A stretch of DNA of 64,000 nt from a virus. The position numbers and the translations under genes were made by a program. Shown piece after piece: positions 28,352-33,534 of the stretch. How positions within the stretch are numbered: position 1 is the first letter of the stretch; the number at the start of each line of letters is the position of its first letter. Under the pieces are notes generated by a model that ran no database searches, was not told the origin of the DNA, and saw only the letters and a list, made by a program, of their open reading frames with translations. The stretch is from the IMG/VR virus record IMGVR_UViG_3300045988_151351, positions 1 to 64,000 of that record; one strand, 5' to 3'.

Positions 28352-28882
28352 ATGAGAATGTTAATTGTTATTGATATGCAGAATGATTTCGTTACTGGGC
28401 GACTTGGTAGTAAAGAAGCTCAGCAAACTGTCCCTCGAATTGAAGAGCGTATTAAAGAATATCTCAAAAATGGAGATACTGTTCTTTTTACAAAAGATAC
28501 ACATAAAGAAAATTATTTAGATACTCTTGAAGGTCATTATCTTCCTGTCGTTCATTGTATTGAAGACACAGACGGTTGGGAAATTGTACCTCAGCTTGCC
28601 CCTTATGCACAGTATATTCTTTATAAGAATAAATTTGGTTATGTAGATTTAGCAAACGATAGTCTTATTATGACTAATACTTATTTTTCTAAAGATAAAT
28701 GTATCAGTATTGAACTTGTTGGTGTTTGTACTGATATTTGTGTTGTTTCTAATGCTTTAATTCTTAAAGCAACTACTGATATTCCTATTTATGTTAAAGC
28801 AGATTGCTGCGCTGGCACCACTCCTCAAAAGCATATGGAAGCATTGGACGTTATGAAATCTTGTCAAGTGGAGGTAATTTAA
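28352..28882 (+). CDS. isochorismatase-family cysteine hydrolase, nicotinamidase (PncA)-like
   Basis: VIDMQNDF (Asp), ...K..., GVCTDICV (Cys) catalytic triad pattern. Confidence 0.6.
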   Translation: MRMLIVIDMQNDFVTGRLGSKEAQQTVPRIEERIKEYLKNGDTVLFTKDTHKENYLDTLEGHYLPVVHCIEDTDGWEIVPQLAPYAQYILYKNKFGYVDLANDSLIMTNTYFSKDKCISIELVGVCTDICVVSNALILKATTDIPIYVKADCCAGTTPQKHMEALDVMKSCQVEVI

Positions 28883-29719
28883 ATGTTCCGTATTAAAGGT
28901 TATGAGTTTGAGATTCACTATACTAATCAGACTTTCCCCGATGGCACTCTCAATCTGAACGGTATGGATTTGACCGGCTGTACTAGGATTGAATGGTATT
29001 ATGATAATGATGCAGAGCTTTTTACTCTGATTTGTTTAGCAAAGAAATGTGCAGAACATAATTGCCGTCCTATTCTTTATATGCCTTATGTTCCTAATGC
29101 TCGCATGGATAGAGTTAAGAAAGAAAGCGATACTTTTACTTTGAAGTATTTCTGCGATATTATTAACTCTCTTAATTTTTTGAGTGTTATGGTACTTGAT
29201 GTTCATTCTAATGTGGCCGCAGCTCTTCTTGATAGATGTATTGTCATTGAACCTACTAATTATATTAGAGAAGCAGTTAATCAAGTATATCTTCTTACTG
29301 GCGGCAATGAAGGATATAGCCGCAAAGAAGTAATGAATAAATTTATTACTTTTTATCCTGATGAAGGAGCTATGAAGCGTTATTCTTCTCTTTTGGATTT
29401 TCCTTATGCTTTTGGTATCAAAAAGCGTGATTGGGAAACGGGTAATATTCTCGGTCTTGAGGTTATGAATAAAGAGATTGTCAAGGATAAGAATATTCTT
29501 ATTATTGATGATATTTGTTCAAAAGGTGGTACTTTCTATTATGCAGCTAAAGCTCTTAAAGAGCTTGGAGCGCACAGTATTTATCTTTATGTAACTCATT
29601 GTGAAAAGACAATTACTTCTGGAAATATTTATTACGGAAATGAAATTGCACAGATTTTTACAACTAATAGCATCTGGCGGGATGAAAATGATCCTCGTGT
29701 AAAAATTCTTGAAGGTTAA
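28883..29719 (+). CDS. ribose-phosphate pyrophosphokinase (Prs)-like protein; candidate ADPR-pyrophosphate synthetase (Adps) of NARP1
   Basis: PRPP-binding motif ILIIDDICSKGGT; adjacent to NAMPT-like gene. Confidence 0.55.
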   Translation: MFRIKGYEFEIHYTNQTFPDGTLNLNGMDLTGCTRIEWYYDNDAELFTLICLAKKCAEHNCRPILYMPYVPNARMDRVKKESDTFTLKYFCDIINSLNFLSVMVLDVHSNVAAALLDRCIVIEPTNYIREAVNQVYLLTGGNEGYSRKEVMNKFITFYPDEGAMKRYSSLLDFPYAFGIKKRDWETGNILGLEVMNKEIVKDKNILIIDDICSKGGTFYYAAKALKELGAHSIYLYVTHCEKTITSGNIYYGNEIAQIFTTNSIWRDENDPRVKILEG

Positions 29720-29817
29720 TATGATAAAATCAAAGGAGTAATTAAATATTACTCCTTTGATTTTTTTATAAAAATATGATATAATATTTATAGAAAATTA
29801 AGAAAGGAATAAATAAA

Positions 29818-31332
29818 ATGAATTATAATCCGTTGCTTCTTATTGATTTCTATAAGGCGACCCATCATGAACAGTACCCCAAGGGCTTGACGAAGATGGT
29901 TTCTTATTACACTCCTCGTATGAGCCGACTGAAGGATACTGATAAGGTTACTCTTTTTGGACTTCAGGGATTTATTAAAGAATACCTTATTAAAGGTTTT
30001 AATGATAATTTCTTTAATCGTCCAGAAGATGAAGTAGTAGCTGAGTATGAACGAGTTCTTAACGCGACTCTCGGCAATGGCACTTATGAGTCTGATAAGA
30101 TTCGAGAACTTCATCGACTTGGTTATCTCCCTCTGGAAATTAGTGCCGTCCCCGAAGGCACTAGAACTGCTATCGGTGTCCCGCAGATTGAAATTACTAA
30201 TACTCATCCAAATTTCGTATGGTTGGTAAATACTATTGAGACGATGCTTTCTTGTACGATGTGGCATACTCAGGTATCTGCGGAAGTTGGTTATAGATAT
30301 TACCAGATTGTTAAGAAATATTATGATTTGTCTTGCGATAAGTATGTAAATCCTCGCAGATTGCTTGGTGATTTTAGCATGCGTGGTCAGCAGTCTGTTG
30401 AAAGTGCTATTAAGAGTTCCGCAGCTTGGTGTCTTAGTTTCTATAATACAGCTACTGTTCCTGCCATTCTTTGGCTTGAAGATAATTATAATTGTGATTG
30501 TACTATCGGTGATGTAGCATATGGTGCTATTTCTACTGAACATAGCGTTATGTGTTCTAATTATGCTATTGATGGTGATGAAATCACTCATATCCGTAGA
30601 CTGCTGACTGAAATTTATCCGCATCATAGTTTTTCTATGGTATCTGATAGCTATGATTATTGGAATCTTGTAGATAATATTCTTCCTCAGCTGAAAGACG
30701 AAATTCTTGAACATGATGGCTGCCTTTCCATCCGTGGTGATAGCGGCGATCCTGTTGACGTAGTTTGTAAGACTGTCTTTAAGCTATGGGATATTTTTGG
30801 CGGAGATATTAACTCTAAAGGTTATAAAGTTCTCAATTCTCATGTAAAAGCTATCTATGGCGATAGTATTACTCCGCAGCGTTGTGAAGCTATTTATAAG
30901 ATTTTGACTGAAAATGGTTTTGCAATTAATAATGTTTCTCTGGGTGTTGGCTCCTTCTCTTTTATGTGCCTTGAAACTCTTGATGACGTTGATGGTTATT
31001 TTGCCAGTCATACTGCGGCACCTCTGCCCAAACCTACTTATAATCCTTACACTCGTGATACTTTTGGTATTGCAGTAAAAGCAACTTATGCAGAAGATGT
31101 TAATGGTAAGCCCATTATGATTTATAAACAGCCAAAGGCGCTGTCTTGGAAAAAGTCTCAGAAAGGTTGCTGCGCGGTTGCTCTTGATGGTCAGAGCTAT
31201 ACTGATGAACATACTTGGAATGAAGTTATTGATATGCCGAATCTGCTTCAGCCTGTTTTCCAGGATGGTATTCTGACAAAAGAATATACTTTGGATGAAG
31301 TTAGAGATAATATGTATCCAGAAGGAGAATAA
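29818..31332 (+). CDS. nicotinamide phosphoribosyltransferase (NadV/NAMPT)-like; candidate Namat of NARP1
   Basis: LLIDFYKATHHEQYP N-terminus, DSYD motif, ~504 aa. Confidence 0.7.
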   Translation: MNYNPLLLIDFYKATHHEQYPKGLTKMVSYYTPRMSRLKDTDKVTLFGLQGFIKEYLIKGFNDNFFNRPEDEVVAEYERVLNATLGNGTYESDKIRELHRLGYLPLEISAVPEGTRTAIGVPQIEITNTHPNFVWLVNTIETMLSCTMWHTQVSAEVGYRYYQIVKKYYDLSCDKYVNPRRLLGDFSMRGQQSVESAIKSSAAWCLSFYNTATVPAILWLEDNYNCDCTIGDVAYGAISTEHSVMCSNYAIDGDEITHIRRLLTEIYPHHSFSMVSDSYDYWNLVDNILPQLKDEILEHDGCLSIRGDSGDPVDVVCKTVFKLWDIFGGDINSKGYKVLNSHVKAIYGDSITPQRCEAIYKILTENGFAINNVSLGVGSFSFMCLETLDDVDGYFASHTAAPLPKPTYNPYTRDTFGIAVKATYAEDVNGKPIMIYKQPKALSWKKSQKGCCAVALDGQSYTDEHTWNEVIDMPNLLQPVFQDGILTKEYTLDEVRDNMYPEGE

Positions 31333-32591: not shown

Positions 32592-32594
32592 TTT

Positions 32595-33098
32595 ATGAAA
32601 CACCAAAAACGTTGGAAATGGATGATTGGTTTTGGTATACTAGGAACAATTGTTGGAATTTCTGACTTTAATTTTAAAATAATTATTTTTTATGCTTTAT
32701 GGACAATTATTAGTTTTATTTGTTTTAAAAATAATGTAATTATTTTCCCCGATAAAGAAAAAAATAAAACTAATAAGAATTATAATACAAATAATTTACA
32801 AAAAGCAGAAAAAATAAATAATGTTGAAACTTTAGTTAGTTATGGAAGATTACCTACTGATGAAGAGAAAAGAAAAGAACGTAATAAAATGACTAAAAAA
32901 TTACGCGAAGAAATTTTATTACGAGATAATTATACTTGTAAAAAATGTGGCTTATCTCGATATGTTGAACCTAATTTAAACCTTCATGTAGATCATATTA
33001 TTCCTATAGCTAAAGGTGGAAAAACAGTTAAAGAAAATTTACAAACTTTATGTTGGAAATGTAATTTATCCAAAGGAGATAAATTAGAAAATGATTGA
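32595..33098 (+). CDS. membrane-anchored HNH endonuclease
   Basis: N-terminal TM helices; CKKCG...HVDHIIP...N...CWKCN HNH motif. Confidence 0.65.
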   Translation: MKHQKRWKWMIGFGILGTIVGISDFNFKIIIFYALWTIISFICFKNNVIIFPDKEKNKTNKNYNTNNLQKAEKINNVETLVSYGRLPTDEEKRKERNKMTKKLREEILLRDNYTCKKCGLSRYVEPNLNLHVDHIIPIAKGGKTVKENLQTLCWKCNLSKGDKLEND

Positions 33099-33534
33099 TA
33101 GTTTTAAAAACAAATATTCTTTTTTAAGCAATTATGAATTGAGTCCTTTCACAGTAAATGGAGTAGTGTTCCCTACAATGGAACACTACTTTCAAGCGAT
33201 GAAAGCGACTAATCAGGAAGATCTTTTAGAAATTGCTAACGCTCCTACACCAGGCCAAGCAAAACGATTAGGTCGAAAGGTTAAGATTAGACCTGATTGG
33301 GAATACGTCAAAAAGGATATTATGCTTGAAGGATTGCGCAAGAAATTTGCTATTCCTGAGTTAAGGCAGAAACTTCTTGATACTGGAGATGCTTACCTTG
33401 AAGAAGGTAATACCTGGCATGATAATTATTGGGGTGTGTGTCATTGCGTCGAATGCCAAGATGTATTAGCGAAAAATAATTTAGGACTTTTACTTATGAA
33501 AGTAAGAGAGGAGATCCAAAATGAGTGTTCCTGA
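33091..33534 (+). CDS. NADAR (YbiA/DUF1768) domain protein
   Basis: LSNY..F...G..FPTMEHYFQAMK...WHDNYWGVC NADAR signature. Confidence 0.6.
   Translation: MIDSFKNKYSFLSNYELSPFTVNGVVFPTMEHYFQAMKATNQEDLLEIANAPTPGQAKRLGRKVKIRPDWEYVKKDIMLEGLRKKFAIPELRQKLLDTGDAYLEEGNTWHDNYWGVCHCVECQDVLAKNNLGLLLMKVREEIQNECS

Follow-up and report, generated by a model that had tools for sequence, protein, structure and literature searches.

The window analysed here is the whole 64,000-nucleotide stretch at positions 1 to 64,000 of the IMG/VR virus record IMGVR_UViG_3300045988_151351. It covers 64 kb of a phage genome, and coordinates are window positions except where another locus is named. At 28352-33534, the list of open reading frames (ORFs) contains seven back-to-back genes, all on the + strand and with hardly any intergenic space, which form a candidate operon for rebuilding nicotinamide adenine dinucleotide (NAD+). 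Its core is a Prs-like gene next to a NAMPT-like transferase gene, which a first-pass annotation of the sequence had read as NAD+ reconstitution pathway 1 (NARP1), the phage system composed of Adps and Namat. The ORF coordinates and gene identities given there are all borne out by the ORF list and by Pfam, NCBIfam and phrog scans, and each quoted motif is found: the transferase has DSYD (residues 277-280), NadE has SGGKDS and the Prs-like protein has the DDICSKGGT loop. The island and its boundaries comprise:

27979-28012, + strand: terminator-like hairpin at the 5' island boundary, closing the upstream unit (14-bp stem and T-run)
28013-28041, + strand: promoter-like site TTGATT-17-TATAAT with extended -10 TG, directly after the hairpin (consensus match only)
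28076-28348, + strand: 90-aa ORF with weak winged-helix (MarR_2/DUF7343) resemblance (E ~2e-3, under the Pfam cut-off)
28352-28882, + strand: PncA-type nicotinamidase, 176 aa (Pfam Isochorismatase, E 7e-27)
28883-29719, + strand: predicted Adps-type Prs-like protein, 278 aa (phrog_619, E 3e-67)
29757-29785, + strand: internal promoter-like site TTGATT-17-TATAAT with TG, within the 98 nt that separate the Adps gene from the transferase gene (consensus match only)
29818-31332, + strand: Namat-derived transferase, 504 aa (NAMPT_N and NAPRTase domains)
31334-31789, + strand: Macro-domain protein, 151 aa from the ATG at 31334 (Pfam Macro; phrog_335 'phosphatase', E 8e-41)
31791-32591, + strand: NH3-dependent NadE, 266 aa, without a glutaminase domain (Pfam NAD_synthase, E 9e-54; SGGKDS)
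32595-33098, + strand: HNH endonuclease, 167 aa (Pfam HNH, E 2e-13)
33091-33534, + strand: NADAR-domain protein, 147 aa (Pfam NADAR, E 7e-27)
33521-33718, + strand: small hydrophobic ORF, 65 aa, the last before the terminator (ORF list; gene also called in the related locus L241)
33705-33731, + strand: terminator-like hairpin at the 3' island boundary (10-bp stem with 6 GC pairs, T-run)

The two terminator-like hairpins bound a unit of 27979-33731, and at both of them the promoter-like site TTGATT-17-TATAAT follows at once on the 3' side.

Lineage and pocket of the transferase

The Prs-like protein belongs to phrog_619, which also contains the biochemically validated Adps of phage ICP1. Measured on the same scale, it scores 141 bits with Megatron Adps, 85 with that of GEP101 and 81 with that of ICP1, against 49 bits at most with solved Prs structures. 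It remains below every NCBIfam Prs cut-off (77.7 bits for TIGR01251, whose cut-off is 113), and far under all cut-offs of the equivalog Prs models. Identity as a canonical Prs is ruled out by these failed cut-offs together with the higher Adps than Prs scores. The residues F18, R87, H121, D161, K185, D212 and D213 of ICP1 Adps, which bind ADP-ribose (ADPR) or act in catalysis (PMC13586617), are all conserved in the window protein, as is C215. Its length of 278 aa is that of an Adps (280 aa in ICP1), and Adps homologues are reported to be devoid of the C-terminal alpha11-alpha12 region of Prs (PMC13586617). From its family, scores and conserved residues we predict an Adps-type ADP-ribose pyrophosphokinase built on the Prs fold.

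For the transferase, the best solved relatives are 9W5X and 9W5W (389 bits), identified by their depositors as SpbetaL1 Namat, compared with 157 bits for the Nampt of Xanthomonas (Xcc) and ~140 for human NAMPT. Its AlphaFold model (predicted local distance difference test score, pLDDT, 86; predicted template-modelling score, pTM, 0.88) is matched best by Namat in Foldseek (TM 0.86-0.91), ahead of Haemophilus ducreyi NadV and human NAMPT. In a distance-based tree (neighbour joining, 80 representatives) with four phage Nampts as its root, Namat and the window's clade split from Nampt in 100 of 100 bootstraps. The window's clade is itself monophyletic in 100/100 and is nested within classical Adps-associated Namat, which is monophyletic by itself in just 5 of 100 replicates. 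The Prs-like/NAMPT-like pair is accordingly of the Adps/Namat lineage, as first proposed, by the tree, by the top rank of Namat in sequence and fold, and by the Adps scores; the outcome that had been named as speaking against this, a grouping with housekeeping Prs and NadV, did not occur. The phrog family phrog_448 was dropped as a discriminator between Namat and Nampt, as it lumps both. NCBIfam and JGI label these transferases 'nicotinate phosphoribosyltransferase'. Many close homologues (P0002-P0005, P0030, P0054, P0062 and others) measure 573-595 aa, compared with ~500 aa for the window protein; their best local alignment spans ~63% of the query, which implies a far larger insertion.

The claim that the pair is a plain NARP1 module does not hold in that form: the transferase is without the nicotinamide-specifying Asp, departs from the SCH motif of Namat, and falls into a clade of its own, to which PncA and NadE are tied. 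In the HMMER alignment with SpbetaL1 Namat (SFTGTDTIPAIL vs SFYNTATVPAIL), Asp215 of Namat is Ala in the window protein; this residue, Ala212, is the equivalent of Asp215 in Namat and of Asp219 in NAMPT. Elsewhere in the pocket, Ser239 corresponds to A242, Asn210 to G213, Gln191 to M194 and Gly307 to P307. Asp215 of Namat hydrogen-bonds the nicotinamide amide, and the seven residues named for the nicotinamide pocket include both D215 and A242 (PMC12774641). In human NAMPT, Asp219 is known to determine specificity: with D219S the preferred substrate changes, and with D219A activity on nicotinamide is lost (PMC7096376; PMC4919578, Table 2). The corresponding D215A exchange in Namat lowers NAD+ formation 8-fold (PMC12774641).

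The window and every member of its clade have Ala at position 215 and likewise Ser in place of Ala242, so that the classical Asp215 pocket is found in none of them. Comparison of 69 distinct sequences of this Ala clade with 110 classical ones yields ten fixed differences (A161G, M194Q, G213N, D215A, A242S, F281Y, R299H, P307G, G356K and Y396P), six of which lie within two residues of an NAD+ contact listed in PMC12774641 (hypergeometric p ~4e-4). Invariant in both groups are D13, Y15, F189, R192, R306, D308, G360, D361, G390, S391, R399 and D400, that is, all other contacts that stack on nicotinamide or hold the ribose and phosphate. The four Nampt outgroups agree with classical Namat at Asp215, Ala242 and Pro307 (three of the four also at Gly213); since known nicotinamide users thus agree at these three positions, only the Ala clade departs. 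Judged from these alignments, the change is centred on that part of the transferase where the pyridine ring's C3 substituent is read, with the Adps partners nearly unchanged. Partners of Ala-clade and classical transferases differ consistently at one position only, and the seven ADPR-binding or catalytic residues of ICP1 Adps are also kept in 61 distinct partners from the Ala clade.

A further departure concerns the adenine clamp. The published SCH signature of Namat, GSXfXfXfTRD with aromatics at positions 3 and 7 (PMC12774641), is replaced in the window by GSFSFM, an insertion of ~24 aa and YNPYTRD, with the insertion located in the adenine-clamp helix (residues ~384-409). The aromatic at SCH position 3 is retained (F); at position 7 (Y396), each of the 69 clade members has Pro, the aromatic being shifted one residue on. 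The clamp residues R40, F392, T398 and D400 are 100% conserved in the Ala clade, and the Nampt outgroups have Gly at 392. In Namat, R40 and F392 are needed for the use of ADPR pyrophosphate (ADPR-PP) and not of phosphoribosyl pyrophosphate (PRPP), and an R40A/F392G mutant retains the formation of nicotinamide mononucleotide (PMC12774641).

Linkage to PncA, NadE and accessory genes

We compared 238 loci overall, each with flanks of 8 kb: a viral set of 80 loci around relatives of the window transferase, a bacterial set of 29 loci from genomes and metagenome-assembled genomes (MAGs), and 123 control loci from three classical Namat lineages (Megatron-, ICP1- and Felix-O1-like), plus a few GenBank phage loci. 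All ~110 Ala-type loci form one clade. Among the viral ones (82, the window included), a PncA homologue is present in 78 and NadE in 80, the missing cases being mostly truncated contigs; an Adpp-like Macro gene is present in 69 of the 82. Neither PncA nor NadE was detected within 8 kb in any of the 127 Asp-type (109) or Glu-type (18) loci, 123 of which have Adps, with hidden Markov models (HMMs) that were built from the Ala clade and that very divergent versions near classical Namat could escape. PncA, Adps, transferase and NadE lie side by side in ~110 independent loci, viral as well as bacterial (57-99% identity), a recurrence that argues against chance clustering. At least two gene orders occur, with PncA either upstream of Adps or downstream of NadE, and since the order differs between subgroups, the linkage to PncA and NadE has survived rearrangement.

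All 28 scorable genome or MAG loci have Ala215/Ser242 and, where the contig allows, a tight PncA-Adps-transferase-NadE operon. In 13 of the 29, the operon is adjoined by a gene for NrtR (Nudix plus winged helix; for example L228 10218-11120 and L236 10256-11140), mostly directly downstream of NadE and in four loci upstream of PncA; a homologue is also found in the viral locus L041. Gut Clostridia are among the bacteria that have the four-gene core in this setting. The effector of NrtR is ADP-ribose, which releases it from DNA, and the regulator was first described on prs-nadV operons (PMC2330246).

The PncA protein has as its best solved relative the pyrazinamidase/nicotinamidase of P. horikoshii (1ILW/1IM5). 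Residues D8, K92 and C130 and the metal ligands D49, H51 and H68 align to those of 1ILW and are invariant in 88 distinct homologues, so that the protein has the Asp-Lys-Cys triad and Asp/His/His metal site by which we recognise a nicotinamidase within the isochorismatase superfamily. NadE, a single-domain protein, lies above the cut-off of TIGR00552, and its SGGKDS motif is invariant across 90 homologues except for Lys to Val in two of them. Among solved structures, 2E18 and 3FIU come closest to this NadE.

About 15% of NARP1 operons carry a Macro phosphatase, Adpp, which converts ADPR-1''-phosphate, the product of aRES defence, into ADPR; this extension is known as NARP1-AP (bioRxiv 10.64898/2026.01.28.702374). 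An HMM of the window's Macro family matches 24 classical NARP1 loci, including the gene order Adps-Macro-Namat (L106, L166), with an identity of only 23-35% between the window protein and the Macro proteins of classical loci. The Macro gene that the first-pass annotation had noted in the operon of the pair probably corresponds to the published extension. The match of the protein to Poa1p (6LFQ) by sequence is not significant (E ~0.8-0.9), and its Adpp identity thus rests on family membership and context; we predict an Adpp-like enzyme that would convert ADPR-1''-phosphate to ADPR. The mechanical ORF starts at 31295, and the gene call in L241 begins at the ATG equivalent to 31334, which is likely the true start.

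The NADAR gene occurs in only a handful of relatives. In L234, an Oscillospiraceae MAG, a 386-aa ORF (9507-10667) downstream of the PncA-Adps-transferase genes fuses NADAR (residues 1-137) to NadE (145-385). This fusion is a Rosetta-stone link of NADAR to the pathway, in which the protein is probably an accessory ADP-ribose-releasing glycohydrolase that feeds or protects it. The loci L002 and L241, 97-99% identical otherwise, lack exactly the HNH segment (32599-33090); on this comparison the HNH gene is mobile, of homing type, was inserted into the operon recently and stands outside the pathway. The 90-aa winged-helix-like ORF that ends 3 nt upstream of PncA is possibly a regulator. It has a homologue in L002 only and is therefore placed outside the conserved core.

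A proposed nicotinate route to NAD+ and its rivals

Based on these data, we propose that the operon is a deamidated variant of NARP1(-AP), expressed as one transcription unit, in which NAD+ would be rebuilt via nicotinate and nicotinate adenine dinucleotide (NaAD); we put the probability of this reading at about 0.6. A host NADase defence would cleave NAD+ to nicotinamide and ADPR or ADPR-1''-phosphate, and in the latter case the Macro protein would strip off the 1''-phosphate to give ADPR. Adps would then react ADPR with ATP to yield ADPR-PP and AMP, while PncA would hydrolyse nicotinamide to nicotinate and NH3. The Namat-derived transferase would join nicotinate directly to ADPR-PP, producing NaAD and pyrophosphate, and NadE would close the route by forming NAD+ from NaAD, ATP and NH3. 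Because this NadE is of the NH3-dependent type, the NH3 released by PncA would balance its consumption. NADAR would be an optional accessory that feeds or protects the pathway through its action on a further ADP-ribose conjugate, and the HNH gene a selfish insertion.

The data establish the gene identities, the clade membership, the pocket substitutions and how strictly these co-occur with PncA and NadE; the substrates of the PncA, transferase and NadE steps, the NaAD intermediate and the anti-defence role we infer. The deamidated route is suggested because the pocket has lost the charge of the Asp and gained hydrogen-bond donors (Ser, Asn, Gln), and because PncA and NadE are linked to it. The known substrates of NAD synthetase are deamidated nucleotides. 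ADPR-PP is favoured over PRPP as the co-substrate because Adps is unchanged, the clamp residues are conserved, Macro is frequent and the bacterial operons have NrtR. Extended to the clade as a whole, the proposal becomes slightly less secure: we lean, by somewhat more than even odds, towards the Ala215/Ser242 clade being a nicotinate ADP-ribosyl transferase that makes NaAD straight from ADPR-PP and forms, with PncA, Adps and NadE, a fourth reconstitution pathway, one that would be abundant among uncultured phages of the gut and of anaerobes and also NrtR-controlled, for ADPR-sensing recycling, in Clostridia and Elusimicrobia. An anti-defence role of the island, as originally suggested, is plausible.

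Several observations weigh against the nicotinate route. The inferred substrate preference rests on two or three pocket residues and on gene linkage. The clamp is altered, with Y396 turned into Pro and a variable insertion of 5-25 aa that is modelled at low confidence, so that use of ADPR-PP by the transferase is not guaranteed. The second-best solved relative of NadE, 3FIU, is a Francisella enzyme that we take to prefer nicotinate mononucleotide (NaMN), which leaves the specificity of NadE unsettled by sequence. Namat retains PRPP activity in vitro (PMC12774641), and NaMN formation is therefore possible. The full-length Ala-type loci L033, L034 and L232 are without NadE within 8 kb; the clade is monophyletic, so the association counts as one event, kept over ~40% sequence divergence; and the controls come from only three sublineages of classical Namat, with 8 kb of flank. 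Lastly, the nicotinate detour would cost the phage an extra ATP. One may speculate that competition with the host nicotinamidase in PncA-rich anaerobes plays a part; equally speculative reasons are an irreversible, ATP-driven last step and a dinucleotide intermediate that NADases do not cleave.

The transferase is phylogenetically a Namat with most catalytic residues intact, and the operon might accordingly be a classical NARP1-AP with helpers, in which NAD+ is still made from nicotinamide and PncA and NadE either boost the Preiss-Handler route of the host (PncB/NadD) or detoxify or regulate nicotinamide. The residual activity of Namat D215A, reduced 8-fold and not abolished (PMC12774641), and the three Ala-type loci without a nearby NadE are compatible with this. 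We nonetheless regard it as unlikely, since it gives no account of the invariant Asp-to-Ala and Ala-to-Ser exchanges (0/127 outside the clade) or of the fact that PncA and NadE never join an Asp- or Glu-type Namat. In addition, a Namat that uses nicotinamide would lose its co-substrate to a nicotinamidase encoded by the phage, and NAMPT D219A is recorded as a loss of activity (PMC4919578). Considerably doubtful, too, is a PRPP-based booster of the Preiss-Handler route, in which the Prs-like protein would make PRPP and the transferase NaMN, to be adenylated by host NadD and finished by phage NadE. PRPP is a usable substrate for Namat and for Nampt (PMC12774641; bioRxiv 10.1101/2024.02.11.579819), the motif of the clamp is interrupted, the database labels name a nicotinate phosphoribosyltransferase, and NadE is as near to 3FIU as to NaAD-type enzymes. 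This reading is at odds, however, with a Prs-like protein of the Adps family that keeps its ADPR contacts, scores 49 bits at most with solved Prs and fails the Prs cut-offs, and with the full conservation of R40, F392, T398 and D400, of which R40 and F392 are dispensable for PRPP chemistry (PMC12774641). The operon is, moreover, accompanied by a Macro protein of the ADPR-1''-phosphate phosphatase type and by the ADPR-sensing NrtR. No phage adenylyltransferase was found by the window scan or by a weak NadM probe of the Ala-clade loci, a probe that caught only the Nudix halves of NrtR and is insensitive to NadD.

The least probable of the alternatives we considered is that the island is an auxiliary metabolic module, a housekeeping system of anaerobic Firmicutes for ADPR and nicotinamide recycling that was acquired to raise NAD+ during replication. 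The same core is indeed chromosomal in bacteria, where it adjoins NrtR and, in L236, lies near LexA, and bacterial NARP1 homologues without a known role exist (PMC12774641). NARP1 and NARP1-AP are, on the other hand, experimentally anti-defence (bioRxiv 10.1101/2024.02.11.579819; 10.64898/2026.01.28.702374), ADPR is scarce unless NAD+ is cleaved, and the addition of Macro/Adpp is known only as a counter to aRES. The genes around the island in the window also include further likely counter-defence functions, such as an RNA-repair set. This alternative concerns role and not chemistry, and is compatible with the deamidated NARP1 pathway.

Relatives, surroundings and known systems

No DNA nearly identical to the window was found in the phage collection. 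Among 50,697 records of isolate phages, one unannotated human-faecal contig encodes a transferase 57.6% identical to that of the window and the rest reach 42% at most, a scarcity that probably explains the absence of this type from isolate-based surveys. At 69% identity or higher, the metagenomic relatives of the transferase among the matches listed form over 120 clusters, as a lower bound, and the closest relatives in genome bins come from Lachnospiraceae, Oscillospiraceae and other Clostridia of the rabbit and ruminant gut. On a 368-kb scaffold of 'Oscillospiraceae bacterium 50-58', the locus L214 (838-4050) includes a PNK-like AAA_33+HD kinase, a PAPS-reductase-like protein and a DNA methylase, together with an ORF that by eye resembles the RlaP-like gene of the window. 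This suggests that L214 is phage-derived, a prophage or phage-plasmid relative, and points to a possible host lineage.

The window is part of a large, low-GC genome of an uncultured phage. Besides a cluster of tRNA genes, it has genes for an SLH-domain protein, gyrase, DnaB, ligases for DNA and for RNA, and a PolIII alpha subunit. Upstream of the island, 22653-26628 holds an RlaP-like nucleotidyltransferase, a metallophosphatase, an RNase T-like exonuclease and an RNA ligase (phrog_968); downstream, 33774-36153 holds two further metallophosphatases and an AAA_33 (PNK-like) kinase. This apparent RNA-repair and phosphoesterase set, flanking the NAD+ island, may make up a wider counter-defence region with it. 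The TTGATT-17 nt-TATAAT motif occurs at 28013, 29757, 33729 and 34741, in intergenic gaps and in two cases directly after hairpins, and may be the (early or middle?) promoter consensus of this phage. Promoter-like sites are in total no more numerous in the scan than expected from shuffled sequence; only the placement of the best sites directly after hairpins is of interest, and it is suggestive.

Farther away, 36201-37589 encodes a 462-aa SPFH/flotillin-like protein with a long Ala/Lys/Glu-rich repeat region. An 828-aa ORF at 17831-20317 has matches to the shoulder domain of major vault protein (E 2e-19) and to a vault repeat, which is unusual for a phage; its C-terminal third is long, charged and coiled-coil-like. 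The 510-aa ORF immediately upstream (15996-17528; DUF2828 and DUF7788) may form a pair with it. The SLH (S-layer homology) protein at 13605-14672 hints at a Firmicutes-type host envelope. Six tRNA genes lie at 11403-13540 (Thr-TGT, Leu-TAA, Gly-TCC, Lys-TTT, Ala-TGC and Cys-GCA); in five of them the anticodon starts with T and therefore reads A-ending codons, consistent with low GC. The region 2001-12000 has a GC content of 18-26% and few long ORFs, compared with 30-40% in the rest of the window.

Few antiviral strategies of bacteria are as widespread as NAD+ depletion, which phages are known to counter mainly through NARP1. The reconstitution pathways in the literature up to August 2026 are NARP1, NARP1-AP, NARP2 and NARP3. 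We found no description of a nicotinate-routed variant in the searchable literature, and no paper joining NARP1 to NadE, or phages and ADPR-PP to NaAD, within the incomplete coverage of these searches. NARP1 and nicotinic acid meet only in the NARP3 paper (PMC13464706), where nicotinic acid is merely general background, and the 2022 comparative survey of Iyer and Aravind leaves NadE, PncA and Prs unmentioned in phage NAD+ neighbourhoods. If the proposed route is correct, it would represent a large and hitherto unnoticed branch of NARP1 that runs through nicotinate and NaAD, with a new enzymatic reaction, nicotinate + ADPR-PP to NaAD. A two-residue rule (Asp/Ala versus Ala/Ser) would then predict base specificity in the Namat/Nampt family, and phage counter-defence would be linked to an NrtR-controlled bacterial operon for ADP-ribose recycling. 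Tools that call every Prs+NadV pair NARP1 would be merging two chemistries, and the counter-defences of gut phages would be under-sampled by isolate-based surveys.

Among known systems, the island resembles NARP1 (Osterman et al., bioRxiv 10.1101/2024.02.11.579819; structures in PMC12774641 and PMC13586617) in its adjacent Adps- and Namat-family genes, here 98 nt apart, in the catalytic and ADPR-binding residues of Adps, and in the Namat fold with D13, Y15, F189, R192, H245, R306, D308, R399, D400, R40 and F392. It, too, has no Nmnat. It differs from NARP1 in the Ala for Asp215 and Ser for Ala242 of a transferase that departs from the SCH signature and belongs to a separate monophyletic clade; in the company of a nicotinamidase and, three exceptions apart, of NadE, against 0/127 within 8 kb for classical NARP1; and in a predicted product that is NaAD, not NAD+. 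With NARP1-AP it shares a Macro gene of the same family as in L106 and L166, a predicted counter to aRES, but the order here is Adps-transferase-Macro, embedded in a larger PncA/NadE pathway. NARP2 (Nampt + Nmnat) and NARP3 (PnuC + NadR; PMC13464706) likewise rebuild NAD+ against NAD+-depleting defences. Neither fits the island: Nmnat/NadM (CTP_transf_like), Nudix, NadR and PnuC were not found among the window ORFs of at least 120 aa over the 64 kb, and the transferase lies outside the Nampt clade.

The Preiss-Handler pathway (PncA-PncB-NadD-NadE) is similar in its nicotinamidase start, its NadE end and the deamidated NaAD in between. In the favoured reading, however, its PncB and NadD steps (nicotinate to NaMN to NaAD) would be replaced by a one-step transfer that puts nicotinate onto ADPR-PP; family scans of the window found no gene of the PncB or NadD type, the sole enzyme of phosphoribosyltransferase fold being that of the NadV/Namat family. 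The bacterial relatives of the island recall the NrtR-regulated prs-nadV operons described by Rodionov et al. in 2008 (PMC2330246) in being prs-like/nadV-like and NrtR-adjacent. Those operons were two-gene units, read as PRPP supply plus nicotinamide salvage, whereas the ones described here add pncA, nadE and the Ala/Ser pocket, and the phage copy in the island, unlike the bacterial operons, is without NrtR.

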